Assembly (NCBI GenBank): GCA_048937405.1
Contig: JBHLNF010000003.1
Coordinates: 264,807 to 328,806, forward strand
Reading direction: 5' to 3'
DNA length: 64,000 nucleotides
DNA from: Promethearchaeota archaeon
GTDB taxonomy: Archaea; Asgardarchaeota; Lokiarchaeia; Sigyniarchaeales; SOKP01
Shown piece after piece: positions 8,601 to 41,475 of this stretch. The stretch's first letter is position 1, and every line of letters starts with the position of its first letter. Under the pieces are notes generated by a model. It saw only the letters and a program-made list of their open reading frames with translations, ran no database searches and was not told where the DNA came from. The translations under genes and the position numbers were made by a program.

Positions 8601-11138
8601 ATTTATAGTAATATACAATGGCTAAATGATACATCCTTTGAAAATAATTTAATTCCAAATCCTTTCTGGTTTGAATCCTATGGAAATATAGGGGATAATT
8701 CTGATGTTAGCGCAAAACTAGAATATACTGATAACTATGCAAATTTGACTGTTATAGGAGAAAACCACACTTTTTCGGATATCTCAGGAACTCCTCTTAT
8801 TAGTAATTGGATAAGAGTTAATAATCCTGACTATCCTGATCTTCCAGATGATTCTGATATTACTGCAGAAGGATGTTGGGTTACCCATTACTGGAATGAA
8901 AGATCTGATCAATCTCCGAGTGTTCATTGGGATCAAAATGTTACAGTAGATCATGATATGTCAGATTACATAATTACATCAGTAAACTTAAGTGTTCTAG
9001 TCAATGCTACGGTTCAAGGTAATAACCCAGAAGGAGGAGGAATTGATATTGATGGTGATCCTAGTGTTTTTGGAGATACATATGATTATGTTAAATTTTA
9101 TGTATTATTTTCTGACATACCTAAGAATAAAGTATATGAGGTTGCTTCTTATCAATCAACAGACTTGGGGAATGATAGCGCCGGAACATGGGATTATCTT
9201 TATGATACCTATTTGGATAATGTACCTCAAGATAGATTAATTGAATATCTCACTTCAGTCTTAAATACTGATAATAGAAACTTCACAATTACCTTAGGTA
9301 TAAGGTTATGGTGTGAAGATAGTTCAACTGATGATATAGATAATTGGGATGAGCTATTAATTAAAAGTTGTAATTTTTCATTTACATATGAGAAAAAAAT
9401 AAATCGATTTACAACTGTATCATGGAATCAAGATGCCCAGAAAATTAGCGATATCAGCCATTTTGAGAACGAAACGATAGTTCTTAATGAAGCAATACTT
9501 AATTTCACATATAGAATTGATCCCAATTGGACCCAATCATCAATTAATTCTAAATTAAGAATTCTTATAAATAATAATCCCCATACCGAGACAATTGAAT
9601 TAAATACTACTAATGGAGATTTCCAGCCAGCAAAAATCGAAGGATTTGATGTCACTCATCTAATAATCGATGATATTAATGTGTCAATACAACTTTTTCT
9701 AGCAGATGAATTTAGTTTAGATCATAATATTACTATCTCCATAGACGATGTTGAGCTTAATATCACTTACACAATAATTTCTCCTCCTCAACTAACTGAT
9801 TTACAGTTATTTTTAAATGGTGACCCTACCCCTAGTTTAGAATTATATGTAGGGCAGCAATTAAATATCACAGTGAAATATGTAAATAAAACGGGTGAGC
9901 ATATTCCCAACGCCACGATTTCACTTTCAGGTAATTTTACTGGAATTTTGGTAGAAAATAAATCATTGGAACAATATACTATCATTTTAGATACAGAAAT
10001 AGAAGACGTTGGTGCCAATTTCCTCACGATTATAGCTTATGCTGAAGATTATGAAATACAAGAAATATATCCTGCAATAACAATAAAGAAATATCCCTCG
10101 CAAGGTCTACACGTAATCTTAAATAATGAAAATGTGACTACTGATCCGCAATTTGAACTCAACCTTGATGAAGAATTAAATATCACAATAAAATATCTAG
10201 ATTCAATGGGCAATTTTATACCTAATGCTAGTGTAAGATTAATATCCGAAGGAATAACAAAAGATCTAAATGAAAGCTCAATATTCGATCAATATAGTAC
10301 TATTATTAATACATCTGATAGATTAAGAGTTGGTCTGAATTATTTGACAATTGAAGCTCAACACCAAATTTATGAAACTAACTCTTCAATTATAAGGCTT
10401 TATATTAGAAAATTTAACGTAGATATTTCTCCAGTATCAGGATCAAATAGAATAGAAATAAAAGCAGGTGGAGATATCAATTTAAGAATAAATTTGAATA
10501 ATACTGATATTGAAGAATTAGTGAAAGGTGCTATTGTTACTTTTGTTTGGGAGGAAGGAGATGGGATTCTAACGGATTCTGATAATGATGGTATTTATGA
10601 GGGAACTATTGAAGATATTCCAGAAGGTGCTTTTACTATTACTATCTCAGGTTTTGCAGGTGATGAATATGATATTCAAAATTATGATTTAACTATCATA
10701 GCAATAGGAGAATCCCATCCTGAAACAACATTATTTCATATTTTATTCATTCTGTCTGTTATATTAATAATTGGACTACTAAGTTATCTAATTGCTTATC
10801 AAACCTATTTGAAATATCCAAGACAAGTACGAAAAGTAAGAAAATATAGAAAAACTTTGAAACGTGAACGAGATCCTAGTGTTTTTATTATGGGGCGAGA
10901 AGATACCTTTAAAAAACTCTATAGGAAAAATTTAATTTTTCTTCATATTCCTAAATTGAAAAGCCCCCCTTCAAAATCCTCATCTCAGGAAAAAAAGAAG
11001 ACTTCTGATAAATTAGAAGCTGAAAAGGAAACCCAGAAGGTAGAATCTGAAAAATTAATTGAAAAGTCTCTAGAAAAGAAAGAAGAATTGGACAGAATAG
11101 TTGATAAATCACCAGATGAAAATTCCAAATCTGCTTAA
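5676..11138 (+). CDS. Large membrane-anchored surface glycoprotein made of two fused homologous halves
   Basis: 1820 aa with four hydrophobic segments. Duplicated motifs: SVHWD.N.T...DMSDY.ITSV.LS, YDYV.FYVL.SD, KSCNFSFTYEKKI, LTD..NDGIYE, YP.QVRKVRKYRKTL. Many NxS/T sequons. Confidence 0.85.
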   Translation: MTSKIIKRKDFSVFSIICMIMLSSLFILLIYTNQNIDSSFNDKNKESEYNNFRNPQMSTAKENLTAIWYKNPGFDDPIEPTWYSKFEGDQSDINATSGSGQANYEILGETRTYSRINGTPTSTYWKNVTNPERPALPDFNEIDNYGCHVSHTWIDPDDPSQMVSVHWDRNITLPVDMSDYFITSVSLSAEVNATVTTVGSGPLYRGGVDVAGDSIDTASPDFAKEYDYVRFYVLISDLEKNDVFEAAYNQTTNLGQDPVPGPSIPSISDTVIFTRPEESLISFLNTVLENDPNHESFTLSLGMRIFCADNGQGDRDTWDSLRFKSCNFSFTYEKKIDEFTTGSWCQDGDKITQVVNDTYVTINDAKLNFKYKINEDWTDLSPNSEIRIYINNNKLPEVLNLSKATTSFQLANNLGGFDVYDIINYDIYLNLSIQVYLAENFHLGTKKIISIDDVYLNISYTVEFPEYQTDIEVYFNNNNITANPIFEISAKTDLNITIKYPDEFGIHIPQAVVNLIGNLTATLIEDDLRGQYTIILNTEDLPIGQIYFNMLAHRINYEAQQLGALLIISKIETEKIQLFIDGEEKTTLPSVDVPLQKSLNITVKYKDTIGDHVPGATIQLVGDGVFENLDESLEFEQYSIILNTTLKFRLGLNDLSINAQKDRYEEQSAYPKITVRKINTLITPVSGSNNINIKPGQNADISVIINDADFNETIKGAIVTYTWEFGNGILTDDNNDGIYEEILENVPSGTHSVNITVYKSDIYNFESYEFIIYALRPKQDLLLFQILLIIGIIVSIGIGGYLYAYQKVLKYPKQVRKVRKYRKTLNKKHAPNISINDREKSFNSEYKQEVKNSSKFIRGKPSIKKPEESGKQKKKSEKSDIKLGSKNEVDSNIKMSDVNLNNQKSYHRKTLKRLRKLKFGILKLKKFQKFMSILIITILLFNFLIVSHYLYQNSKNSFYSQKDDFKDNLGISGQKIYSNIQWLNDTSFENNLIPNPFWFESYGNIGDNSDVSAKLEYTDNYANLTVIGENHTFSDISGTPLISNWIRVNNPDYPDLPDDSDITAEGCWVTHYWNERSDQSPSVHWDQNVTVDHDMSDYIITSVNLSVLVNATVQGNNPEGGGIDIDGDPSVFGDTYDYVKFYVLFSDIPKNKVYEVASYQSTDLGNDSAGTWDYLYDTYLDNVPQDRLIEYLTSVLNTDNRNFTITLGIRLWCEDSSTDDIDNWDELLIKSCNFSFTYEKKINRFTTVSWNQDAQKISDISHFENETIVLNEAILNFTYRIDPNWTQSSINSKLRILINNNPHTETIELNTTNGDFQPAKIEGFDVTHLIIDDINVSIQLFLADEFSLDHNITISIDDVELNITYTIISPPQLTDLQLFLNGDPTPSLELYVGQQLNITVKYVNKTGEHIPNATISLSGNFTGILVENKSLEQYTIILDTEIEDVGANFLTIIAYAEDYEIQEIYPAITIKKYPSQGLHVILNNENVTTDPQFELNLDEELNITIKYLDSMGNFIPNASVRLISEGITKDLNESSIFDQYSTIINTSDRLRVGLNYLTIEAQHQIYETNSSIIRLYIRKFNVDISPVSGSNRIEIKAGGDINLRINLNNTDIEELVKGAIVTFVWEEGDGILTDSDNDGIYEGTIEDIPEGAFTITISGFAGDEYDIQNYDLTIIAIGESHPETTLFHILFILSVILIIGLLSYLIAYQTYLKYPRQVRKVRKYRKTLKRERDPSVFIMGREDTFKKLYRKNLIFLHIPKLKSPPSKSSSQEKKKTSDKLEAEKETQKVESEKLIEKSLEKKEELDRIVDKSPDENSKSA

Positions 11139-11156
11139 TTAACTTCTTTTTTCTTA

Positions 11157-11717
11157 TCACTTTTGCATATCGCGTTTTAATAGAGCTAATATTATAGCAT
11201 CATGATATTCTCCTTGAAAAATTAAATATTGTTTTAAAATTCCTTCAATAATAAAGCCGCATTTTTCAAAAAGAGAAACTGATCTATGGTTTTTAATTGC
11301 AATATATGCTTCAAGTCTATTCATTTTTAGATGATTAAAAGCGATTTTTTTAATTAAATTTAAGGATCTCTCTCCCAATCCTTTACCCCAAAAGGATGGA
11401 AGTAGCCAAATTCCAATTTGAGTTCTTTTATGTTGCCAATTAATATTCCAAAGACTTATTGAGCCGATTTTAATTTTATCAATATTATGTAATTCGATAA
11501 TATAATTAAATTGAAGATATTTGTCCCAATATCTTAAATAATTTTTAATTAATCCTTTCGAATGCTCTAATGATTCTAATGGCCTCAAAGATAAGTAATT
11601 TGTCAAATCTTTTTCACTCAGACTATTGAAAAAGAAATCAGCATCGTTTTTCAAAACCTTTCTAAGAAAAAGGTTGTGATCTTCAATTACTTCAACTATT
11701 TCTAAGTTATTTTTCAT
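11157..11717 (-). CDS. GNAT N-acetyltransferase, RimJ/RimL family
   Basis: IGIWLLPSFWGKGLG and NHRSVSLFEKCGFIIEG motifs. Confidence 0.9.
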   Translation of the reverse strand: MKNNLEIVEVIEDHNLFLRKVLKNDADFFFNSLSEKDLTNYLSLRPLESLEHSKGLIKNYLRYWDKYLQFNYIIELHNIDKIKIGSISLWNINWQHKRTQIGIWLLPSFWGKGLGERSLNLIKKIAFNHLKMNRLEAYIAIKNHRSVSLFEKCGFIIEGILKQYLIFQGEYHDAIILALLKRDMQK

Positions 11718-23465: not shown

Positions 23466-25886
23466 TTGAGCATGGTTGAAGATATTAAGTTTAAAGAATA
23501 TAAACAGGATATTGAATCATTATTCACCCCAAAAAGTAAGTATACTTTCTTAGTAGGTGCTGGGATCTCTATGGATCCTCCAACAAACATGCCTTCTGCG
23601 ATACAGATTGTTAAAGGATTATTGGAACTATGTGCACCTCAAGAAGAAATAAAAAATTTGCTTTCTCTTGATATGCTTAGATATGAGCTAGTAGTAGAGA
23701 AGATACAAGATATTTTTGATGAAGATTTAAGATTCTTAGATTATTTAGAGAATGTTACTGAACCAAATCTCATCCATATGTTTTTAGCAAATATTATTAC
23801 TAGAGGTAATTATGTTATAACTACCAATTTTGATTATTTAATTGAGCAAGCTTTACTGCGTGTTCTAGATGATCAATGGCATCAAGATATATTACCAATC
23901 ATTACTAAGGAAGATTACATCTTTTATCGAGATCCGGATAACCTTGTGAAATCAAATAAATACCCTATATTTAAAATACATGGTTCCAAACGTAATATTA
24001 TCACTGATAAAGATACAAAGGATTCACTTATCACTACAATGAGTGCTTTGGGAAAAGAACGTGGAGAAGGGGAAACATTCACGATTGAACCATATAAAAA
24101 ACCCACAGTATTTAATTTAATGAACAATCGATCTTTAGTTGTTTTAGGATATTCTGGTAGTGATGATTTTGATATAGGGCCAACATTAAGGGAATTACCT
24201 TATCTTAATCGTATTATCTGGATTGAACATTCTCAAAATGCTTATCCAGAAATAATTAAAATAAGAACGAGGGAAAACTTAAGTCCTTCAGATGAAATTT
24301 CTCCTCTAGAGCAAATGTTAACTGATATAAGTTCTTCTGGCGATTTTGAAGTTATCTTAGTTAGAATTCACACTAATAAATTCATCCAAAAATACTTATG
24401 GAAAATTTTCTTACCTTATCATCCTTTAAACGAAACAAGTTTAGGTGGATCAGATAATAAAGAAATTCCGAATTTCTTGGAATGGATAAAACCATTATAT
24501 GAAAATATACCTAAAGTTGAAAAATACAAATTTGCATGCCAATTATTCTACTATTTAAAAGAAATTGAAGCCGCAAGTCGTTGTTCACAAAGAGGTATTC
24601 AAAACGCAGAAGAAATAAATGATATCTCTTCAAAATCATACTTTTTGAATTTTTTAGGTTTAATTACTCAAATTAAGGGAAATTATGCTAATGCATTAGA
24701 ACATTATCAGAATGCCTTACGAATTGATCAATCTTTAAATGACGTTGCAGGTATTGGTTCAGATATCAATAATATAGGTTCTATCTATTTAACTATAGGG
24801 AAATATGATGAGGCCCTTGAAAAATATCACCAAGCTTTAGAAATAGCCGAAAAATTAGATGACAAAGGAAGTAAGGTTACTTGCTTAAATAATTTAGGAA
24901 GAGTACATGAAGTGCGTCATGAATTTGACTTAGCTTTAGAAAATTATTTAGAAGGGATCCAAATTACTGAAGAAGTGGGAGATCTAAATAGCAAAGCACT
25001 CCTTTTAAATAATATAGGGATGATTTACAGAGCCAAAGAAGAAAATGAGCAAGCAATTAAATATTTTTATGAATCCGTACAAATTTCAGATCTTTTAGGA
25101 GATGTTTATGGTAAAATAATAGTGCTAAACAATATAGGAAGGGTTTATGATGAATCTAAAGATTATGAAAAGGCTTTAGAAAAATATAATGAATCTATAA
25201 AATTTGCTGATCAATTAGGGGATTTGGCAAAAAAGGCAGGAAGTATGAATAATATTGGTTCAATTTATTTAGCTCAAGGGAATACAGATAAAGCGTTAGA
25301 AATATATCAAGAAGCATTGAATATCGAAGAGCGATTAGGAGATCCGTTGATGAAAATAATTTACCTTAATAATATCGGAATGATTCACAATAGTAGGGGT
25401 AATTATAACGTCGCTAAACAAAAATACAATGAAGCTTTAACCATTGCAAATGATATTGGTGATTTATCTAAAAAAGCCCTTCTTTTAACCAAAATAGCCT
25501 CAATAAATATGATACAAGAGGAATATCAATCTGCTCTTGAACAATACGAAGAAGCCGTTTTAATTTTTGAAAATATAGGAGAATTATCTAATAAAGCTGC
25601 GACTCTTAGTAATATCGGAAAAATTTATGAGACTTTTGAAAATCATTATGAAGCATTAAGACGTTATGAAGAAACTCTCACGATAGATCAACAATTGCAA
25701 GATCCTATGGGAATAGCAAGTGATTTTTATAATTTAGGAAGAGTATATACAATCCAGGGAGAATATCGGAAAGCATTACAAAATTATGAAGAAAGTATAA
25801 AAATATTTGATCAATTAGAACAAAAACAGTATGTTGATGTCATCAGAAGCAAAATTGATGAAATACAGAAAAATATTGGAAAATAG
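23466..25886 (+). CDS. SIR2-like domain protein with C-terminal TPR array
   Basis: FLVGAGIS, ITTNFDYLIE, FKIHGS, VLGYSGSD, followed by ~11 TPR units of about 40 aa (LNNIG..Y.......AL..Y..AL.I...LGD). Confidence 0.9.
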   Translation: MSMVEDIKFKEYKQDIESLFTPKSKYTFLVGAGISMDPPTNMPSAIQIVKGLLELCAPQEEIKNLLSLDMLRYELVVEKIQDIFDEDLRFLDYLENVTEPNLIHMFLANIITRGNYVITTNFDYLIEQALLRVLDDQWHQDILPIITKEDYIFYRDPDNLVKSNKYPIFKIHGSKRNIITDKDTKDSLITTMSALGKERGEGETFTIEPYKKPTVFNLMNNRSLVVLGYSGSDDFDIGPTLRELPYLNRIIWIEHSQNAYPEIIKIRTRENLSPSDEISPLEQMLTDISSSGDFEVILVRIHTNKFIQKYLWKIFLPYHPLNETSLGGSDNKEIPNFLEWIKPLYENIPKVEKYKFACQLFYYLKEIEAASRCSQRGIQNAEEINDISSKSYFLNFLGLITQIKGNYANALEHYQNALRIDQSLNDVAGIGSDINNIGSIYLTIGKYDEALEKYHQALEIAEKLDDKGSKVTCLNNLGRVHEVRHEFDLALENYLEGIQITEEVGDLNSKALLLNNIGMIYRAKEENEQAIKYFYESVQISDLLGDVYGKIIVLNNIGRVYDESKDYEKALEKYNESIKFADQLGDLAKKAGSMNNIGSIYLAQGNTDKALEIYQEALNIEERLGDPLMKIIYLNNIGMIHNSRGNYNVAKQKYNEALTIANDIGDLSKKALLLTKIASINMIQEEYQSALEQYEEAVLIFENIGELSNKAATLSNIGKIYETFENHYEALRRYEETLTIDQQLQDPMGIASDFYNLGRVYTIQGEYRKALQNYEESIKIFDQLEQKQYVDVIRSKIDEIQKNIGK

Positions 25887-25994
25887 AATTTCAACCAAAT
25901 ATTTTAACTCCTAATTTATAATAAAACTTTAATGTAAATAATTGTATTTTAAAATAACTTTTAATTATTATAAGGAAAAATTCAAAATTTTCCA

Positions 25995-27566
25995 TTGAAG
26001 ACTATAACAGATTTCTTAATTATTGGAAGTGGAATCTCTGGACTTTCTTTAGCGTTAAATCTTTCCAAATTAGTTCCAGAAGAACGAATTTTTTTAATCA
26101 CAAAAGAAAGTCTCCATGAGTGTAGTACATTTCATGCTCAAGGGGGAATCGCTTGTGTATGGGATGATGATGATAATTTTGAAAAACATATCCAAGATAC
26201 ATTAATTGCAGGAGATGGGTTATGTAATAAGCAAATTGTCAGAAAAATAATAACTCAGGCTCCTGAAAGGATAAATGAATTAATAGACTTTGGATTAGAG
26301 TTTACTAGGGATAAAAATGGAGAATACGATCTTGGAAAAGAAGGAGGACATTCGAAAAGAAGAATACTTCATGTGAATGATCAAACTGGAAGAAGTATTG
26401 AAAAAATATTGATAGACAATGTAAAAAAATTAAGTAATATTGAAATAAAGGAAAAATGGTGTGGAATTAATCTTTATGTTAAAGATTTAAAATGCTATGG
26501 GGCATATGTTCTAGAACAGGATTCTGAGGAAATTCATACTATTATAGCTAAATCCACTATTTTAGCTACGGGAGGGGCAGGAAAGATTTATTTATACACA
26601 ACAAATCCTGACGTAGTTTCAGGTGATGGAATCGCAATGGCCTACAGAGCAGGTGTTATGATATCCAATATGGAATTTTATCAATTTCACCCTACATGTT
26701 TATATCATCCATATGCCAAATCATTTCTGATCACTGAAGCAATGCGAGGAGAAGGCGCAATTTTGAAAGATTTAAGAGGAAATGAGTTCATGGGAAAATA
26801 TCATCCTCAAAAAGAGTTAGCACCTCGTGATATTGTATCAAGAGCTATTGATGCCGAATTGAAGAAATCTGGTGATGATCATGTCTATTTGGATATAGCT
26901 TCTTATAAAGATTCTAATTTTATCAAAAATCATTTTCCAGGAATTTATGAAAAATGCTTAAAATTTAATATTGATATTACAAAAGAACCTATTCCTGTAG
27001 TTCCTGCTGCTCATTATTGTTGCGGAGGTGTGAGGAGTGGAATTGATGGTCTTACAGAGATTAAAAATTTATTTGTTATTGGAGAAGCCGCTTGTACGGG
27101 TTTTCATGGTGCTAATAGACTAGCAAGTAATTCTTTACTTGAAGGTTTAGTTACTGCCCATGAATGTGCATTTTATTTATCAGAACATGCATCTAGTTTA
27201 AAAATCAAAGATTTTCCAGAATGGGAAATCGGGAATGCTGTTCCATCAACAGAAGCTGTAGTAATAACTCAAAATTGGGATGAAATTAGAATGTTAATGC
27301 AAAATCTTGTTGGCATTGTCAGATCAGATTTGCGTTTAAAGAGTGCTCTTAAACGAATGAATTTATTTTCAGAGGAGATAGATTATTATTATTGGAATTA
27401 TAAAATCGATAAGAATTTAATTGAGTTAAGAAATTTATCGATGGTTGCAGAAATATTAATTAGGTGTGCACTATCGAGAAAAGAAAGTAGGGGTACTCAT
27501 TATAATGAAAACCACCCTCAAAAATTAGATTTAGCAAGGAATTCTTACATTAAAAGACCTTGGTAA
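25995..27566 (+). CDS. nadB: L-aspartate oxidase
   Basis: IGSGISGL, AQGGIA, EGGHSKRRILH, QFHPT, LITEAMRGEG, ELAPRDIVSRAI, HGANRLASNSLLE, ESRGTH. Confidence 0.95.
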   Translation: MKTITDFLIIGSGISGLSLALNLSKLVPEERIFLITKESLHECSTFHAQGGIACVWDDDDNFEKHIQDTLIAGDGLCNKQIVRKIITQAPERINELIDFGLEFTRDKNGEYDLGKEGGHSKRRILHVNDQTGRSIEKILIDNVKKLSNIEIKEKWCGINLYVKDLKCYGAYVLEQDSEEIHTIIAKSTILATGGAGKIYLYTTNPDVVSGDGIAMAYRAGVMISNMEFYQFHPTCLYHPYAKSFLITEAMRGEGAILKDLRGNEFMGKYHPQKELAPRDIVSRAIDAELKKSGDDHVYLDIASYKDSNFIKNHFPGIYEKCLKFNIDITKEPIPVVPAAHYCCGGVRSGIDGLTEIKNLFVIGEAACTGFHGANRLASNSLLEGLVTAHECAFYLSEHASSLKIKDFPEWEIGNAVPSTEAVVITQNWDEIRMLMQNLVGIVRSDLRLKSALKRMNLFSEEIDYYYWNYKIDKNLIELRNLSMVAEILIRCALSRKESRGTHYNENHPQKLDLARNSYIKRPW

Positions 27567-30418: not shown

Positions 30419-31933
30419 ATGGTATTTTCCTTGAAAAAATACGATGTACTTTTAATTCATCCACCTAGAGTGTTAAATCCAGATTATCGTAAAAATGCTA
30501 AATTTATTCGAGGTACATTTATTTTTATACCTATGGGTGTTTTTGCTATTGCAGATTTACTTGAGAAAGAAGGTTTTGGAGTTAAGATAATAAATTATCC
30601 GTTAGAGCAATATCTAAATCGTAATTGGAAATTAATCAACTTTCTCAAAAATATTGATTTTGAAGTGTGTGGATTGGATTTACATTGGCTTCATAATGCT
30701 TACGGTGCAATGGAAATTGCTAAAATTGTGAAAAAAGCAAACCCAAATGCTAAAGTAGTACTTGGAGGATATAGTGCATCATATTACCATCATCAAATAT
30801 TGAAATATTATAAAGATATAGATGGTATAATCAGAGGAGAAGGAGAAGTTCCACTACTTAAATATGTTCAAAGTATTAAAAAAAATCAATCTTTAGATAA
30901 TGTCCCTAATTTATCTTATCGAGATTCTTTTAAACCCGTAAAAATTAATTCCCTTACATATATAGCAAAAACATTAGATAATCTAAATTTTACTAATTTT
31001 TCACTTCTGGAAAATGCAAAGCAATATTTTGAATGCAGTAGGCAAATGATGGGAATCTCTTTTAATCTTTCTATTGGAAGAGGTTGCCCTTTTAATTGTC
31101 CATTTTGTGGAGGAGGTCAAAGGGCACAAAAAAGGTTATCAGGTCGAGAAAATGTCATCCTTAGAAAACCAGAAAAAGTAGTAGAAGATATTAGTAGTGT
31201 TCTCAATAATTTTAATATACCAAGTATTTTTTTTGGACACGGTGCTTATCCAGCTACCTTAAAATATTGGAAAAGATTATTTGGATTAATTCAGAAAGAA
31301 GATTTTGACATTGGGGGAGATTTAGAGATTTGGCGTTTACCATTTCCTAAATATATGTGGGATATATTCTATAAAACATTTCCTCGTAGATATTCATCAC
31401 TTAGTATCTCTCCCAGAACAATGTCAAGTAGAGTACATCAAAAAATAAGGAAAATTTGTGATCCTACCTTTAGTTTTCCTAAAAAGCAAATAAATGATTT
31501 AATAAAGAATGCAAATATATACAAAAGAACTTTAAGAATTTGGCTAACTGTCGGATTTCCTTTCCAATCTCACCTGGATATTCAAAAAGATTTTATTTTT
31601 GCCTTAAAGTGTCAAATAAAATATGGTAAATCAATTTCAAAGCCCATTACTATTATGAATGAACCATATCATATTTTTCCGGGATCCCCTGCTCATGAAG
31701 CTCCTGAGAAATTTGGTTTAAAATTAATTTTAAATTCATTTCCACAAATTTCTGCATTTTTTAAAAGAACTAAAATAACATTTTTCTATAATGCAATAAA
31801 TTATGAAACTAATAGATTTTCTAAAACATCTATTCGTAATATAAATATGTTATTATTTTTAAGTAATTTACTCACTTCTTTTACTACAGGAGCTAAACTA
31901 TCTGATAGAAAAGAACAAGATTCCAATATTTAA
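30419..31933 (+). CDS. Cobalamin-binding radical SAM protein
   Basis: VLLIHPP...PMG, VVLGGYSAS, RGEGE, GRGCPFNCPFC. Confidence 0.9.
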   Translation: MVFSLKKYDVLLIHPPRVLNPDYRKNAKFIRGTFIFIPMGVFAIADLLEKEGFGVKIINYPLEQYLNRNWKLINFLKNIDFEVCGLDLHWLHNAYGAMEIAKIVKKANPNAKVVLGGYSASYYHHQILKYYKDIDGIIRGEGEVPLLKYVQSIKKNQSLDNVPNLSYRDSFKPVKINSLTYIAKTLDNLNFTNFSLLENAKQYFECSRQMMGISFNLSIGRGCPFNCPFCGGGQRAQKRLSGRENVILRKPEKVVEDISSVLNNFNIPSIFFGHGAYPATLKYWKRLFGLIQKEDFDIGGDLEIWRLPFPKYMWDIFYKTFPRRYSSLSISPRTMSSRVHQKIRKICDPTFSFPKKQINDLIKNANIYKRTLRIWLTVGFPFQSHLDIQKDFIFALKCQIKYGKSISKPITIMNEPYHIFPGSPAHEAPEKFGLKLILNSFPQISAFFKRTKITFFYNAINYETNRFSKTSIRNINMLLFLSNLLTSFTTGAKLSDRKEQDSNI

Positions 31934-32073: not shown

Positions 32074-32775
32074 ATGCCCTTTACACAAAAACTAAGCATT
32101 ACGAGAATTATATTAATTTTAATCTTTTTTTTCGCTAGTATCCCTATTACACTAATTTGTGCGCTATTAGGAGATGCTACCATTTTAATTTCTATTACAA
32201 AAGGTTATTTTACATCAGGAAATTCAATTTTCCTTCCTTATTTGTCTATTACTAATATTTTTTGGTTTTTACCTGATAAATTTCAATTTATACAGATCAG
32301 TTCTGGTTTTTTGATTGATAGTATAATTATCATAAATATATGTCCTATGGTTGAAAGAATTGCTTATCAATATTATATAAAGGTTTGTTCAGAGGAAGTT
32401 TTTCAAGAACCTTTTGATTTTGATCCTAAAAATCAAATCCATAATTTACATCAAGGTTCAGTCATACTTTTTGGATTAGGAGACGAGCCAATACTTCCCT
32501 CTAATGTATTAATTTTATCTATTAAATTTAAAAAAAATGAAAGTCTAATAAATAAATGCAATAATTATTATTTTTTAAAAGAAAAAGGCAATAAATTTGA
32601 TGAGATTACTAGTATAAGACTATTTCACTTATCGTTTATATTGCACTATTCACATTTTCTACAATTTTTTAATATATATGATATTGAAAAATTAGATAGT
32701 ATTTCTATCAATCAATATCTTTATCCTCAAACTATTATTTCATATTCAACTAAACCTTTTCAACGGGAGGGATAA
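32074..32775 (+). CDS. Hypothetical protein with hydrophobic N-terminus
   Basis: 233-aa ORF, too long to be likely by chance at this AT content; no motif recognised. Confidence 0.5.
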   Translation: MPFTQKLSITRIILILIFFFASIPITLICALLGDATILISITKGYFTSGNSIFLPYLSITNIFWFLPDKFQFIQISSGFLIDSIIIINICPMVERIAYQYYIKVCSEEVFQEPFDFDPKNQIHNLHQGSVILFGLGDEPILPSNVLILSIKFKKNESLINKCNNYYFLKEKGNKFDEITSIRLFHLSFILHYSHFLQFFNIYDIEKLDSISINQYLYPQTIISYSTKPFQREG

Positions 32776-32865: not shown

Positions 32866-34272
32866 GTGAATTTAATGGAATGGAAAAATGAAATTGAAGA
32901 TTTGTACAAACAAATAACGAATTTAACTCCTGAAGCGTTTCGCCCATCTGTTAAACCTATGTTACGTGAGGCTGCTGAAAAAACAGCGCAACTTAGGAAT
33001 TCTGGATTTGTAAGTAGGGACGATTTGCTATCTGCATTATTTGAGATAACACCAGAAGCATTTCAACCTACAGTTGTCAAAGATTTGAAGACAATAGGAA
33101 TTGATACGGATAGATATATAAAATTATCAGAAATTAGAAAACAATACGCTCGCTCATGGGATGAAATTAGTGGAGCTTTCTTACCTGGTGTCTATCATTT
33201 TACTATATATCTAACGGATCGATGCAATCAAAATTGTCTCCATTGTGCTGCCGCGGTAATGGAGAAACGTCCAGAATTTCCCACTGAAACTTGGATTGAA
33301 ATTATTGAGGATCTTGAACAAAGTTTACGAAAACGCGGTCGACGAGGATGTTATATATGGTTTGGAGGAGAACCTACTATTCGTAAAGATCTTAAAGATT
33401 TAATAAAATATTGTGGTGAAAAGGGCTATTATCAAGCACTTGCAACTAACGGAATTTTGTTTACCGAAGCACTGGCTAAATTATGCGCAGATGTTAAGAT
33501 GAGCCATATTTTTATTAGTTATGATAGTACGGATCCCAAACGCGCTGCAAAAATTAGAGGGCATCCAAAAGCATACGAAGCAGCGGAAAAAGCGTTAGAT
33601 TTAGCTGCAAAATATGGGATTTTTACCATTGCTAATGTAACTGCTCAAAAAGAGAATTTCGATGAATTAGATATGTTAAGGGAATATTTTAAATCTAGAG
33701 GTGTAACGCCCTTTTATAGACCCCTGATCAAACAACGTTCGGCGGATTTAAATTGGGACGAAATCGGCTTAAGTATTGACGAATATCGACAATTCTATGA
33801 TTTTAAATATAAAAATACAATAGAGGCTATCAGAAAAGGAGAAGGATCATCGCTCAATAAATTCTATACATGGGATATGGTGCCATTCATGGAGTGTCCT
33901 ATAAATGATGAGGAAAGGACTGCGATCGAATGGGGCACAGGATGTCAAGCCTGTCGCTCAATTTCCGGGATTGATACTAATGGAGATATATTCCCTTGTG
34001 ATTATCCCTCTGATTTAATCTTAGGCAATATTCTTGAGCAGAGTTGGGATAACATTATGGAAACTGAAATGTTCAAAAAAATTAGAGATCGAAAAATAAA
34101 AGGGAAGTGTTCAAATTGTCACCACCTTGATATGTGTGGTGGAGGTTGCCGGGTGCATGCAGAGAATGTAACGGGTGATTTTTTAGCTGCACTTCCTTTC
34201 TGTTGGCATGAAAATGATCATGAACATGAAGTTAATTTTGCAGATAAAGAAGAAGTAGAATTGCTAGAATGA
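32866..34272 (+). CDS. Radical SAM/SPASM protein with N-terminal DUF2621/PCP_red-like helical domain
   Basis: CNQNCLHC, FGGEP, ATNG; SPASM cysteines GCQAC...GDIFPC...KCSNC...CGGGC...FC. Probable start is ATG at 32875, after GAGGTGA. Confidence 0.92.
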   Translation: MNLMEWKNEIEDLYKQITNLTPEAFRPSVKPMLREAAEKTAQLRNSGFVSRDDLLSALFEITPEAFQPTVVKDLKTIGIDTDRYIKLSEIRKQYARSWDEISGAFLPGVYHFTIYLTDRCNQNCLHCAAAVMEKRPEFPTETWIEIIEDLEQSLRKRGRRGCYIWFGGEPTIRKDLKDLIKYCGEKGYYQALATNGILFTEALAKLCADVKMSHIFISYDSTDPKRAAKIRGHPKAYEAAEKALDLAAKYGIFTIANVTAQKENFDELDMLREYFKSRGVTPFYRPLIKQRSADLNWDEIGLSIDEYRQFYDFKYKNTIEAIRKGEGSSLNKFYTWDMVPFMECPINDEERTAIEWGTGCQACRSISGIDTNGDIFPCDYPSDLILGNILEQSWDNIMETEMFKKIRDRKIKGKCSNCHHLDMCGGGCRVHAENVTGDFLAALPFCWHENDHEHEVNFADKEEVELLE

Positions 34273-34349
34273 TTATTTAGAATTTAATATTCTTTAATAA
34301 AGTAATTTGAAAGAGATAAAAAACAAAAATAAAGGAGGTGATAATTTAA

Positions 34350-34739
34350 TTGAACACAAAAGAAGAATGGGAAGCATATCTCGAGCATTTCATGAAAGCC
34401 TACAATGAGATTCCAGATCTAGCGAAATTGTTAGACCCAATTGCACCATTAATCTTTCAATATGAAATAACTGATAAACCTGAGATGAGTTATTGGCAGT
34501 TTATTGATCATGATAAGATGGATTGGGGAATAGGTATTTATTCCGGTCCTGAAGCCCCAAAAATCATCCATAAAACAGATTTCAACACAATTAAGAAGGT
34601 AAATTCTGGAGAATCTGATCCAATTCAAGCGACTATGGCGGGTACTTATATTGTGGAAGGTGACGTGAGTAAGTTGATGGCATGTGCATCATTATTGCCA
34701 CTTAATGCAAAAGCTCATGAAAAAGCAAATCAACAATAA
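34350..34739 (+). CDS. SCP2 sterol/lipid-binding domain protein
   Basis: TDFNTIKKVNSGESDPIQATMAGTYIVEGDVSKLM matches the SCP2 C-terminal motif (G..dp..a.m.Gkl.v.Gd...lm). Strong GGAGGTG SD before a TTG start. Confidence 0.85.
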   Translation: MNTKEEWEAYLEHFMKAYNEIPDLAKLLDPIAPLIFQYEITDKPEMSYWQFIDHDKMDWGIGIYSGPEAPKIIHKTDFNTIKKVNSGESDPIQATMAGTYIVEGDVSKLMACASLLPLNAKAHEKANQQ

Positions 34740-34862
34740 AGAAAAGAGTATATATTAAAATCTAATAAGAAATTTTTAATTTCATTTTAAAAATCTATAA
34801 ACCAAGAAAAAATAGTCAATAGGAAAAAAGAGAAAAATAATTAATAAACTAAATATCTTAAG

Positions 34863-36275
34863 GTGAGAATGATTCAATTTTATGTTGCGACAAATTGGGA
34901 TCCTAATCTAATCGATGAATTAGCTAACTATCCTGTAGTTGATTTATATGGAGTTGCAGATCATACAATTGTTGGAGGAGGTCGACCCTCGTTTTTGTTA
35001 CGAAATATATCTGATGAAGATATAGCAGAATACATAAAAAAAGTACATGATAATAAATTGAAATTTTCATATCTATTAAATGCCCCATGTATGAATAATA
35101 TGGAGTATGATCCACGCTATCATAAAGAGTTGCTTAATTATCTTCAATGGATTACTGATATTGGAGTTGATGGCGTTATAGTAACTATTCCTTTTTTAAT
35201 ACAACTTATAAAAGAACAATTTCCTAAGTTAAAAATACGAGTCTCCACTATTTCGCATGTTAATAGTGTGAATAGAGCGAAATTTTATGAAATGTTAGGA
35301 GCTGATGAAATCACTCCAGACGTCATGATTAATCGAGATTTTAGGACTTTAAAAAATATTAAGAAAGCAGTTAAATGTAAAATTGTCCTTCTATTAACTG
35401 ATGGTTGTTTATATCAATGTCCTTTCAGATATTATCATTATAATATCTTAGGCCATTCTTCTCAAACATATCAACAATTCGACAGAAATTACATCGATAC
35501 TTGTATATTAAATTGTAGTGTTATTAAATTTTCAAATCCTGCGGAGATTCTCAAATGTAGGTGGGTTCGTCCAGAAGATTTATCCCATTATGAAGAAATT
35601 GGAATCACAGATTTTAAAATAGCTGGACGTCGGATGTCAACCGATTGGATTATTAGATCTGTGAAAGCTTTTTCTTCAAGAAAATATGAAGGAAACCTCA
35701 TTGACATTATTCAAGGATTTACTATGTCAATTGGAGTAGATAAAGATCCAAATATTAAATTCACAAAAACAGTCACTGAAGAGATTAAATCCAAATTAAT
35801 AATTGATAATACGAAACTTGATGGATTTATAAATTTTTTTAAAAAGCAAGATTGTATCTCAATGTGCAATGAGTGTAATTACTGTGATGAATGGGCAAAG
35901 AAAGCGGTTATATTAAATAGAGAGGAATCTACGAGATATGTTGAGTCTATAAAAGATTATCTTGAGGACATATTAACTAGCCGTGAGTTTGGAATCGAAA
36001 CGGCTAAACCAAAAGAGATAAAGAACGATGGTTTATTATGGGATAGTGAAACTAAGATTATTTTTGATGAATTAATAAAATTATCACCACAGCAGTTTCA
36101 TCAAATTGCTAAGATGGTAATTTCTTCTCTAGCAGAAGAAAAAGCCAAAAAAAGGTTTTCAGAAGTTGTAGAAAACAAAGATATTGTTGAAGCATTTATA
36201 GAAGGAACACCTGAACCATTTCAAGCAGATATGAGAGAAGGTCTCAAAAAGCATGGACTTTTGGAAGGAAAATAA
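34863..36275 (+). CDS. U32 'peptidase' family Fe-S protein with C-terminal DUF2621/PCP_red-like domain
   Basis: GGGR, YLLNAPC, GVDGVIV, VSTISHVN, GCLYQC, CILNC, WVRPEDL, FKIAGR, plus an extra CxxxCxxCxxC motif. Confidence 0.88.
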   Translation: MRMIQFYVATNWDPNLIDELANYPVVDLYGVADHTIVGGGRPSFLLRNISDEDIAEYIKKVHDNKLKFSYLLNAPCMNNMEYDPRYHKELLNYLQWITDIGVDGVIVTIPFLIQLIKEQFPKLKIRVSTISHVNSVNRAKFYEMLGADEITPDVMINRDFRTLKNIKKAVKCKIVLLLTDGCLYQCPFRYYHYNILGHSSQTYQQFDRNYIDTCILNCSVIKFSNPAEILKCRWVRPEDLSHYEEIGITDFKIAGRRMSTDWIIRSVKAFSSRKYEGNLIDIIQGFTMSIGVDKDPNIKFTKTVTEEIKSKLIIDNTKLDGFINFFKKQDCISMCNECNYCDEWAKKAVILNREESTRYVESIKDYLEDILTSREFGIETAKPKEIKNDGLLWDSETKIIFDELIKLSPQQFHQIAKMVISSLAEEKAKKRFSEVVENKDIVEAFIEGTPEPFQADMREGLKKHGLLEGK

Positions 36276-36344: not shown

Positions 36345-37781
36345 CTATTTTTTTTTATTTGATTTTTTAGATCTTTGTTTCAGGGAGTGTTCTATCTTCT
36401 GAAAGATTGCTTTAACCATAATTATATTCACTACTCTTGGAATATGAAATCTTAAACCTCGATTTAGAACGACAGTTTTAATTCTAGGCCAAAGTTTTTT
36501 AGAATTTGAAACTTCAAAAAAAGCTCTATTCAAGAAATCTTTCAAATCTTTTATTGATAAATAGGGATATTTAATAATTGGCACTGACCAGTTAAATTCA
36601 CGCCAATCATTGCTTAATAAAAGATTGTCCTCTAAAACTTTTTCCATCAATTTTGTTCCCGGAAATGGAGTTAATACTGAAAAGGTTGTTAAATCGATTT
36701 CTAATTTCTTAGCAATTTCGATTGTAGATTCTAAATCATCTTTTTTATCCTCAAAATTGGATCCAAGAATAATGTTTCCTTGAATAAAATAGCCATAATC
36801 ATGAAGAATTTTTAAAGCTAATTTGATTTGTTTGAATTTAGTTTGTTTGTTAAGAAAATCCAATGTTCGATCAGAAAAACTCTCGATTCCTAAAAATAGG
36901 AAAATAAAACCAGCATCAGCCATCTTTTTAATAATTTTCGGGTGCTTTACAATCATATCAACTCGAATTTGAGTTGAAAAATATTTTCTAATACCTTCCT
37001 GAATAATGGCATTACACAGTTCTTCTACAAATTTATGATCTACCAAAAAATTATCATCAATGATAAAAATAAATGGACTCTGATTTTTAACCTCATTTGA
37101 ATTTAATTCTTTTATAATACTTGGTATTGAACGAGTCCGGTATCTCTTTCGATAAAATTCGTGAATACAACAAAAATTACATGAATATGGACAACCTCGA
37201 CTAGTTTCAATGCAATCAATAGGAAAACCATAAAAAGTGTATTCCACTTTTGCTTCTTTTGAACGATAGTGTCGAGAAGGTAATTTAATATGTTTTAAAT
37301 CTAATAATTCTCGGTCAGGGTTATGAATTATTTTTCCATTTTTTTTATATGATAATCCTGGGATACCAATGGGAGAATTATTTTGGATAAGCTCCCGAAA
37401 AGTTATTTCTCCCTCACATCTTATCAGGATATCAATAGATTGAAATTCAAGAGTTTCTTTAGGAACAAGCGTAGGGTGCCAACCACCTATAACTGTCTTT
37501 GATCCATAAGTTTTAGCAATATTAGCAATTTTAACTACATGATAGATTTGTGGAGTATAATTGCAACTAATCCCTACATAATCAGGTTTAAATTGATAAA
37601 TTGTATTTTCAATGCTTTTTAAATCTATAGTTTTTAGCCTATTATCAATTATAAGGACATCAGCAATTTCTTCAATATTTGCAGCAATATATTCTAAACC
37701 CAATGGTGGAAGAATTACATTTTTTTGGGTACCATGCTTAAAAACGTCAGGATAATCTGGATTTATAAGTAGTACTCTCAG
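36345..37781 (-). CDS. Cobalamin-binding radical SAM protein (BchE/HpnR/GrsAB-like class)
   Basis: PPLGLEYIAA, IGGWHPT, CEGE, TSRGCPYSCNFC, IDDNF, LGIES, LTPFPGT. The frame extends to CTG at 37781, giving the canonical MRVLLINP start. Confidence 0.9.
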   Translation of the reverse strand: MRVLLINPDYPDVFKHGTQKNVILPPLGLEYIAANIEEIADVLIIDNRLKTIDLKSIENTIYQFKPDYVGISCNYTPQIYHVVKIANIAKTYGSKTVIGGWHPTLVPKETLEFQSIDILIRCEGEITFRELIQNNSPIGIPGLSYKKNGKIIHNPDRELLDLKHIKLPSRHYRSKEAKVEYTFYGFPIDCIETSRGCPYSCNFCCIHEFYRKRYRTRSIPSIIKELNSNEVKNQSPFIFIIDDNFLVDHKFVEELCNAIIQEGIRKYFSTQIRVDMIVKHPKIIKKMADAGFIFLFLGIESFSDRTLDFLNKQTKFKQIKLALKILHDYGYFIQGNIILGSNFEDKKDDLESTIEIAKKLEIDLTTFSVLTPFPGTKLMEKVLEDNLLLSNDWREFNWSVPIIKYPYLSIKDLKDFLNRAFFEVSNSKKLWPRIKTVVLNRGLRFHIPRVVNIIMVKAIFQKIEHSLKQRSKKSNKKK

Positions 37782-40605: not shown

Positions 40606-41475
40606 TTAAGAAATTTCTTTAATAGCTTCTTTCAAAATTGCTAAGATTTTTTCCCGATACATGGGTTCGATTGAAATCATTCCATGAGTTTTAATTATAC
40701 GCTTTTCACTCGATAATATTTTTTCGCAAAATTCTGGTGTTAACCTATTTGGTAAATCTTGTTTATTAGCGATACCAATTACAAATTTATCTTGATAAAA
40801 TTTATCTAAAATATCATGTATAATTTCTTTAGAACCATTAATATTTTCAAAGGTAGAATCAGTCACTAAAATACAAATATCAGATCCTTGTAAAAGGCTT
40901 TTCCATAAAGATCTAAATTGAGCTTGACCTGCAAAATCCCATAATGTTATGGATCTTTCAAACTCATCTCCATCATATGAAGCGATATCCGCTGTGATGG
41001 TTGGAACATATTCAAGATTTACATCCTTTCCACAAATCAATTTTGTCAAAGTAGTCTTTCCTACACCACCAAATCCAATAATTGATATTTTAATTGCTCC
41101 TAAAATTATATTATCTAATTCATGTTCAAAATCACTGAAAATACTTCGATTCCCCGCCCAACTCCCATCCTCTAAAATTTTACCGAAATTCTCAATGAAT
41201 TTTGTTCTAATACTTAAGATTTTTGAATTAACAGTTGCATCATCATCTTCTAAATCGGTACATACTACAATTATAATTGTATCAATTATTGTATAATAAT
41301 ACTTAAAATCCTCTGTAGCTGTACTTTTTATATCACTCTGACTAATTTCTTTCATAAAACCAGAAAACGCACTTAAAAATCCAGCTAATAAATCTCTATC
41401 TACCTCCGAATTACCATAATTTCTAAATAACAATGATTTGCCATCTCTCGTCAAAACGTTTATGTATTGAATCAT
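40606..41475 (-). CDS. Longin domain fused to a small GTPase (Arf/Rab-like)
   Basis: N-terminal MIQYINVLTRDGKSLLFRNY...DLLAGFLSAFSGFMKEI; G1 GFGGVGKT, G2 YVPT, G3 WDFAGQ, G4 NKQD. Confidence 0.88.
   Translation of the reverse strand: MIQYINVLTRDGKSLLFRNYGNSEVDRDLLAGFLSAFSGFMKEISQSDIKSTATEDFKYYYTIIDTIIIVVCTDLEDDDATVNSKILSIRTKFIENFGKILEDGSWAGNRSIFSDFEHELDNIILGAIKISIIGFGGVGKTTLTKLICGKDVNLEYVPTITADIASYDGDEFERSITLWDFAGQAQFRSLWKSLLQGSDICILVTDSTFENINGSKEIIHDILDKFYQDKFVIGIANKQDLPNRLTPEFCEKILSSEKRIIKTHGMISIEPMYREKILAILKEAIKEIS

Follow-up and report, generated by a model that had tools for sequence, protein, structure and literature searches.

A four-helix domain shared by a radical SAM enzyme and a U32 protein of an Asgard archaeon, a putative pathway adaptor

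Introduction

UbiT, UbiU and UbiV constitute a module for O2-independent hydroxylation (PMC6747719, PMC10990095). Here we analyze a stretch of 64,000 nucleotides (the window) from contig JBHLNF010000003.1 of a Promethearchaeota archaeon, in which, as in that module, a U32 Fe-S protein (34863-36275) is encoded beside an SCP2 lipid carrier (34350-34739). The subject of this study is a domain of 74 residues that is found at the N-terminus of a radical SAM enzyme of this locus and again at the C-terminus of its U32 protein. The likeness to UbiT/UbiU/UbiV extends to Asgard relatives of the locus, which have adjoining U32 gene pairs as well as U32-SCP2 fusions. The differences are that the window has one U32 protein rather than a UbiU/UbiV pair, with marginal similarity to UbiU (E = 0.012), and that the Asgard cluster adds SPASM and B12-binding radical SAM enzymes and an ABBA prenyltransferase.

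Biosynthetic pathways are well known to use shared modules for recognition or docking, namely the PqqD-like RiPP recognition element (RRE), the docking domains of polyketide synthases (PKS) and nonribosomal peptide synthetases (NRPS), and the MbtH-like proteins. The domain studied here resembles all of these in being a small non-catalytic module, free or fused to unrelated tailoring enzymes of one cluster. The RRE, however, is a winged helix-turn-helix with a beta-sheet, whereas our domain is an all-alpha four-helix bundle; in addition, and in contrast to RRE and docking-domain systems, the Asgard cluster shows no evident precursor peptide or carrier protein.

By sequence, the best family match of the domain is DUF2621 (PF11084), which is described from free-standing proteins rather than from enzyme fusions (Bacillus subtilis is the control genome with a match). 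A second relative is PCP_red (PF08369), the C-terminal module of BchB/ChlB in dark-operative protochlorophyllide reductase (DPOR). We know of no DUF2621-like tail on UbiU or UbiV. The searchable literature yielded no mention of DUF2621, three mentions of PCP_red/PF08369 that are all mere family listings in Pfam-wide surveys, and no description of a module or cluster combining U32, radical SAM and SCP2 proteins in archaea, Asgard archaea included. Nor did we find a published account of a domain of the DUF2621/PCP_red superfamily that tags a whole cluster.

Because one small non-catalytic module occurs on several unrelated enzymes of one pathway, we favor the reading, with a probability of roughly 50%, that the domain is a putative pathway adaptor, which would mediate contacts among enzymes acting on one greasy intermediate, or contacts with its carrier.

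Results

The two copies are homologous

The domain occurs twice in the window and nowhere else in the 4.47-Mb source genome:

32881..33102, plus strand: domain copy 1, 74 residues, N-terminal on the radical SAM/SPASM enzyme rSAM-A
36039..36260, plus strand: domain copy 2, 74 residues, C-terminal on the U32-family protein U32-a

Copy 1 begins at residue 6 if counted from GTG 32866, or at residue 3 from ATG 32875, and copy 2 ends four residues short of the U32 stop. An earlier reading of this DNA, made from its letters alone (the sequence-only reading), had proposed that one and the same helical domain caps both enzymes, having counted by hand 23 identities in 74 ungapped positions. The two strings of 74 residues that it quoted are exact translations of these segments, and BLASTP reproduces the count (23/74 identical, 40/74 positives, E = 4e-13, ungapped and end to end). 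Comparison of the profiles of the two orthologue sets, which that reading had itself set in advance as a possible refutation, found the segments homologous, with a probability of 99.7% and E = 6.8e-26 over 74 columns. Each window copy also matches the orthologues of the other family, ungapped and across all 74 residues, at E values between 1e-7 and 1e-13, in dozens of Asgard proteins.

A chance likeness of two helical, low-information segments with no common function might be suspected in a domain that is small and all-helical, and whose profile also gathers TPR_10/TPR_12 and RRM repeat proteins by adding up weak matches. Such fortuitous similarity is ruled out by the pairwise E value for an ungapped alignment of 74 columns, by the cross-matches of orthologues and by the profile-profile result. 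Conservation of about 75% across Asgard lineages, and the same module on further enzymes of the same cluster, likewise argue against it, and we regard this explanation as refuted, with next to no probability left. Thus, we conclude that a single ancient, non-catalytic four-helix domain, distantly related to DUF2621/PCP_red, is present here in two copies, which a short and poorly conserved linker joins to the N-terminus of the radical SAM/SPASM enzyme and to the C-terminus of the U32 protein.

The domain recurs on several enzymes of a larger Asgard cluster

Among 201 Asgard genomes, 14 contain the domain, 12 of them from the window's own family, which is represented by 40 genomes. Most domain-bearing relatives have 4-10 closely spaced copies, and named orthologues come from metagenome-assembled genomes of Loki-, Thor-, Hod-, Hermod-, Heimdall- and Odinarchaeota. 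Eight related loci (L013-L020) were fetched and annotated. In these the domain is carried by up to five proteins, namely rSAM-A, rSAM-B, a prenyltransferase, a U32-SCP2 fusion (U32-b) and U32-a.

A full cluster is found, for example, at L015. It begins with a B12-radical SAM enzyme, a protein with a hydrophobic N-terminus that is homologous to the one encoded at 32074-32775 of the window, SPASM A, SPASM B and a B12-radical SAM enzyme, and continues with an ABBA prenyltransferase, a U32 protein of 383 residues (U32-c), a U32-domain-SCP2 fusion of 683 residues and U32-a. The domain is N-terminal on SPASM A (88% identical to the window's enzyme), on SPASM B and on the ABBA aromatic prenyltransferase (PF11468), C-terminal on U32-a (76% identical to the window's) and absent from U32-c. 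The corresponding cluster of the window consists of a B12-radical SAM enzyme, the conserved protein, SPASM A, a free SCP2 protein and U32-a, with a second B12-radical SAM enzyme on the opposite strand. With a relative's prenyltransferase as query, no prenyltransferase core was found in the source genome, where the two domain copies alone were matched. The window's operon is thus a reduced, minimal two-copy form of the larger Asgard cluster.

In one related genome the U32 copy is followed, some 1.5 kb further downstream, by a second copy (G144:C1:300261-300458), which has an in-frame TGA and an open frame of only 65 residues; this gene is possibly broken.

The fusions are old and the domain is conserved about as well as its hosts

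In a maximum-likelihood tree the domain copies cluster by host enzyme, with five types each forming one side of a branch. The tree requires four changes of host type, which is the minimum, and none of 200 label shuffles gave a number as low. The fusions are therefore old and retained, rather than products of recent shuffling. Orthologues for the conservation figures were collected with the domain as query. In rSAM-A orthologues, which have 451-469 residues with the domain at residues 3-76, the identity is 76% for the domain versus 74% for the catalytic core; in U32-a (55 orthologues) the mean identity is 74% for the domain, 80% for the core and 53% for the linker that joins them. That is, each enzyme type has its own domain subtype, conserved about like its catalytic core. 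When the U32-a core alone was the query, 13 genomes yielded 14 orthologues, each of them followed immediately, and in frame, by the domain.

The position of the domain is that expected of an adaptor module: it is terminal (at the extreme N- or C-terminus) or lies between domains, on a flexible and poorly conserved linker. The residues that connect the domain region to SCP2 in the U32-b fusion are modelled with a predicted confidence (pLDDT) below 50. Natural U32-domain-SCP2 fusions make up 53 protein clusters, and other architectures join further members of the pathway, namely domain-prenyltransferase-SCP2 (P0331, 530 residues), domain-rSAM/SPASM-domain-prenyltransferase-SCP2 (P0332, 999 residues) and U32-domain-SCP2-domain-domain (P0314, 867 residues). 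Tandem copies are present on some U32 proteins. The free SCP2 protein of the window is 46-80% identical to the SCP2 modules of its relatives, whether these stand alone or belong to fusions with U32, rSAM/SPASM or prenyltransferase. These natural fusions lend indirect support to the notion that the proteins of the operon work together.

The same support comes from a third family of radical SAM/SPASM enzymes, proteins of about 502 residues to which a C-terminal SCP2 is fused directly, with no copy of the domain (L016:8398-9975 and 10007-11515; P0333-P0343); one of its members is labelled Thermoplasmata.

The hosts belong to unrelated enzyme families

Searched with the profile, 1.84 billion representative proteins gave 206 matches at E <= 0.001, of which the best 150 were classified as follows:

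56 of 150: short proteins of 135 residues or less with nothing else, some of which may be fragments
25 of 150: U32 proteins, including U32-SCP2 fusions
15 of 150: ABBA prenyltransferases, with the domain N- or C-terminal
11 of 150: radical SAM/SPASM enzymes
2 of 150: SCP2-domain proteins
10 of 150: other or unknown partner
31 of 150: spurious (TPR or RRM repeats) or partial

LuxC-domain-rSAM/SPASM is a single architecture, counted among the 11 radical SAM/SPASM enzymes. The class of other partners includes, as singles, a radical SAM enzyme with a C-terminal copy, a fragment of an HpaB-type hydroxylase, a class I methyltransferase, a PNPOx-like flavoprotein and a glyoxalase-fold protein. In all, the hosts represent at least eight unrelated enzyme families, nearly all of them tailoring enzymes for hydrophobic or aromatic small molecules, and several without an Fe-S cluster. 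The domain-only proteins among the best 150 representatives (56, some possibly fragments) have 75-105 residues, and one of 84 residues is encoded by a complete gene between two B12-rSAM genes on a 68-kb contig (L008); hence, the domain can act in trans.

Giant proteins matched by the profile in several stretches (850-4891 residues) were rejected as spurious: those that were scanned contain TPR_10/TPR_12 or RRM repeats, and the others lack a full-length match to the domain. P0096 (711 residues, one ENA contig) is an aldehyde:ferredoxin oxidoreductase (AOR) to which the end of a U32 protein is attached, ~150 residues that contain both the Cys-rich motif and the domain. It is either an assembly chimera or a true fusion, and was not counted as a new architecture because it is a possible chimera from a single metagenome contig.

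Three of the loci do not look Asgard-like. L008 (54% GC) encodes, besides the free 84-residue copy, a protein of the form U32-domain-SCP2x3-domain and two AOR proteins; L011 (66% GC) encodes LuxE, LuxC and the LuxC-domain-rSAM fusion; and L025 (53% GC) has two adjoining domain-bearing U32 genes and a SPASM enzyme with a C-terminal copy. For three further domain proteins (two short ones and one C-terminally tagged rSAM) the contigs are too short for informative context. Inside the U32/radical SAM cluster of L025 (9720-12186) there are also two genes of the IF-2B family (methylthioribose-1-phosphate isomerase-like) and a PNP_UDP_1 phosphorylase gene, which suggests salvage of a 5'-deoxyadenosine or methylthioadenosine by-product.

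The sequence-only reading took its two hosts to be unrelated Fe-S enzymes, proposed a common electron donor among the possible partners and called for a census of fused enzymes. The census, as run on the best 150 of the 206 matches, shows many unrelated hosts, several of which have no Fe-S cluster. That the domain is a docking site for a ferredoxin or flavodoxin serving all these enzymes is suggested by the fact that both hosts in the window are Fe-S enzymes in need of reduction, and by the AOR genes that adjoin the U32-domain-SCP2 fusion at L008. Yet the domain is also found on the ABBA prenyltransferase, the class I methyltransferase, LuxC, the glyoxalase-fold protein and SCP2, none of which has an Fe-S cluster or an external reductant, and the B12-rSAM enzymes of the cluster need reduction but do not carry it. 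Since several hosts are non-redox or, as with the PNPOx-like and HpaB-like flavoenzymes, non-Fe-S proteins, an electron donor as general partner is highly improbable.

Fold and conserved residues

AlphaFold2 (AF2) predicts, from a joint alignment of 25 sequences, an all-alpha four-helix bundle with helices at residues 3-13, 18-38, 46-56 and 59-71 (pLDDT 96.7, predicted TM-score (pTM) 0.85), in agreement with the helical character that had been proposed. The sequence is an internal repeat of the form helix, (T/S)-P, helix. Nine positions are invariant in this alignment (W1, P17, F20, E33, R39, T57, P58, F61 and L69). In an alignment of 77 sequences, P58 alone is invariant, and W1 and P17 are conserved at 90% or more. 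Conservation falls on W, P, F, L and A residues and on E33, R39 and D48. We take the invariant residues to form the core, to cap helices or to make up one charged pair, and not to be a catalytic set; as would be expected of an adaptor module, the domain has no catalytic residues. The winged helix-turn-helix with a three-stranded beta-sheet that typifies the RRE is not seen in the all-alpha model, and Pfam gives no PqqD match.

Searches of the PDB by sequence, with two profiles and one single sequence, gave nothing below E = 0.08, and the HMM match to the histone-type structure 1F1E has E = 0.17. A Foldseek search of the model against the PDB, one of the checks that the sequence-only reading had recommended, returned nothing below E = 0.1, with histone H2B-type folds at 0.14 or worse. 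The best structural alignments (VIA-align) are to lid subdomains of AAA+ proteins, namely BchI (1G8P, Z = 8.4, rmsd 2.8 A over 69 residues), MCM, RuvBL and ORC, and Nostoc asr4154 (2L09, 62 residues), presumably a PCP_red protein, aligns with Z = 6.0 and an rmsd of 3.3 A over 55 residues; on the calibration that the tool itself supplies, Z values of this size are background for helical bundles. The resemblance to AAA+ lids and histones is thus a structural likeness only, and no function was drawn from it, given the background Z values, the lack of an ATPase module and the lack of significance in sequence.

Relation to DUF2621 and PCP_red

The gathering cut-offs are 27.7 bits for DUF2621 (139 model positions) and 32.5 bits for PCP_red (45 positions). 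Against DUF2621, the U32 copy scores 26.1 bits in Pfam (E = 9.5e-6) and 27.1 bits in a six-frame search of the genome, or 27.9 bits with neighboring matches included; the rSAM copy, scored on the whole rSAM protein, reaches 13.1 bits (E = 0.096). Against PCP_red, the rSAM copy scores 12.8 bits (E = 0.12, 74-residue segment), and the U32 copy has no match in Pfam. In the wider family, matches at E <= 0.01 are found to DUF2621 for 45 of 77 domain sequences (best E = 1.2e-10) and to PCP_red for 22 of 77 domain segments (best E = 3.6e-7). The sequence-only reading had noted a resemblance to DUF2621/PCP_red; judged by these family-wide matches, it is real at the level of the superfamily, although the Pfam scores of the window copies themselves are below the cut-offs.

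The correspondence is partial in both cases. The matches to DUF2621 span model positions ~50-138 only, so that the first ~50 positions have no counterpart in the domain. With PCP_red, the first half of the domain shares the layout W...P..(F/V)R...AE..A; however, PCP_red has 45 positions as opposed to the 74-residue double helix-turn-helix unit, and all domain scores are under its gathering cut-off, the best relative among the whole proteins scored reaching 28 bits (P0169). There are no DPOR or tetrapyrrole genes at the window locus, and BchB chains are not in the structural match lists of the domain model.

The kinship with PCP_red raises the main rival to a pathway adaptor. In BchB, a C-terminal helix covers the protochlorophyllide cavity (PMC4071322). 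By analogy, our domain could be a mobile lid that folds over a hydrophobic substrate pocket of its own or a neighboring subunit and shields a greasy aromatic intermediate. Besides the 22 of 77 matches to the C-terminal module of BchB/ChlB, this proposal is consistent with host enzymes that all handle hydrophobic or aromatic small molecules, and with a subtype-specific conservation that fits co-adaptation to each enzyme's pocket. It is harder to reconcile with hosts of unrelated folds, on which the domain is N- or C-terminal (among both the prenyltransferases and the rSAM enzymes) and attached by a poorly conserved linker; with tandem and free-standing forms, which would be odd for a dedicated lid; and with the lack of an evident aromatic or charged ligand-binding motif. 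It also requires that the BchB helix lie within the PCP_red model, which is our assumption and counts against the proposal. We therefore consider a lid doubtful, while ranking it above the other rivals.

Genes of the window

The domain copies are set in the following context, in a source genome of ~29% GC:

30419..31933, plus strand: B12-binding radical SAM enzyme without the domain (Pfam B12-binding, Radical_SAM)
32074..32775, plus strand: 233-residue protein with a hydrophobic N-terminal third, directly upstream of rSAM-A
32866..34272, plus strand: rSAM-A, radical SAM/SPASM enzyme (Pfam Radical_SAM 9.5e-22, SPASM 8.2e-10)
34350..34739, plus strand: SCP2-type lipid-carrier protein, 129 residues, without the domain (Pfam SCP2 5.1e-5, 24 bits, cut-off 21.3)
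34863..36275, plus strand: U32-a, U32-family protein (Pfam Peptidase_U32 5.4e-14)
35973..36038, plus strand: Lys/Glu/Pro-rich linker from the U32 core to the domain (mean identity 53%, 55 orthologues)
36345..37703, minus strand: second B12-binding radical SAM enzyme without the domain (Pfam)

The genes for rSAM-A, SCP2 and U32-a are co-directional, with SCP2 directly upstream of U32-a. The best NCBIfam matches of rSAM-A are AhbD, AhbC and NirJ, all far under their cut-offs. U32-a scores 28.2 bits against TrhP (cut-off 534) and 14.8 bits against UbiU (E = 0.012, cut-off 440), and by these NCBIfam scores it is not a UbiU/UbiV equivalog. The true start of rSAM-A is probably ATG 32875, because the orthologues begin with MEW. 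The mechanically assigned starts of rSAM-A (32866-32877) and U32-a (34863-34871) are probably a few codons early; the database copy of U32-a (P0046, 468 residues) starts two codons past GTG 34863.

Orthologues of the first B12-binding enzyme (57-72% identity) flank the cluster in relatives, and an orthologue of the second (65% identical) adjoins the cluster at L016. The 233-residue protein has no significant Pfam match; homologues of 27-41% identity occupy the same position in six clusters (L013 and L015-L019), and it could be a membrane component or hub of the pathway. Elsewhere in the window, 23466-27566 encodes a SIR2-like domain fused to about ten TPR repeats, and the next gene downstream of it a flavoprotein resembling L-aspartate oxidase (NadB); a Roc/Arf-type small GTPase is encoded at 40606-41475.

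That in six clusters rSAM-A is immediately preceded by a conserved protein whose N-terminus is hydrophobic would also suit a different role, in which the domain targets soluble tailoring enzymes to the membrane or a lipid surface, and thereby to a membrane-embedded substrate. A lipid or prenylated aromatic is indeed the likely substrate, considering the SCP2, prenyltransferase and LuxC/LuxE contexts. The properties of the domain argue against this role: the two window copies are near neutral to acidic (net charge about -1 and -3), no amphipathic basic face is evident in the sequence, the AF2 model is a closed bundle, and none of seven inspected relatives with extra sequence around the domain shows a transmembrane segment. 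Membrane targeting is thus unlikely.

Candidate binding partners

The sequence-only reading had gone further and proposed a shared partner (SCP2, an electron donor or the other copy) and a single complex. The joint working of the operon proteins has the indirect support of the natural fusions described above; no partner, however, came out of the fold and complex predictions. Several observations in fact weigh against the adaptor reading. In the AF2 model of a natural domain-linker-SCP2 segment (pTM 0.55), two well-folded halves are joined by a disordered linker and the domain is not confidently packed on SCP2, which is weak evidence only. Prediction of a complex between an rSAM-type and a U32-type domain, from alignments, scored 0.00, which is no answer and speaks neither for nor against binding. 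Neither of the computational methods used, the domain-SCP2 fold or the domain-domain complex, saw binding.

Gene content adds to these points. Outside the close relatives, the DNA fetched for L004, L011, L024 and L025 contains no SCP2, and at L004 (a prenyltransferase), L011 (LuxC-domain-rSAM) and L024 the domain is present as a single copy. Simple models in which it binds SCP2, or pairs with the copy on a neighbor, therefore do not cover these loci. The B12-rSAM enzymes and the 383-residue U32-c of the same cluster lack the domain, and it is therefore not needed by every enzyme of the pathway. Finally, the subtype-specific conservation would also fit a domain that works in cis with its own enzyme.

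Discussion

On the adaptor reading, the domain would bring together the successive enzymes for a single greasy intermediate, aromatic or prenylated, or, alternatively, would lead enzymes to a bound substrate, for example on SCP2. It would then be the docking tag of a loosely held multi-enzyme assembly working without O2, and its candidate binding surfaces would be another copy of the domain, SCP2, an enzyme core or the substrate itself.

More tentatively, and at odds that we judge to be clearly below even, the DUF2621/PCP_red-type bundle may represent a new class of docking tag, and the cluster an O2-independent metabolon for a prenylated aromatic (quinone-like) lipid in Asgard archaea. The parts of this putative metabolon would be free-standing SPASM radical SAM enzymes, hydroxylase-like U32 proteins, the ABBA prenyltransferase and the SCP2 carrier. 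The hope that the domain could give DUF2621 a function has not been realized yet; if the metabolon reading is true, DUF2621/PCP_red would acquire its first function, and other organisms could be searched for pathways of this kind by means of it.

The window alone contains two of up to five tagged enzymes, and is thus one part of the picture. Seen across its relatives, the domain marks the enzymes of one accessory, strictly anaerobic-looking Asgard cluster, which combines U32, SCP2, radical SAM and aromatic prenyltransferase proteins. Should it prove to be a device for docking or hand-over, we would learn from it how a pathway for a water-insoluble intermediate is held together without an assembly line, and it would provide a simple sequence marker for related bacterial pathways, in which it is fused to LuxC, methyltransferases and flavoenzymes.

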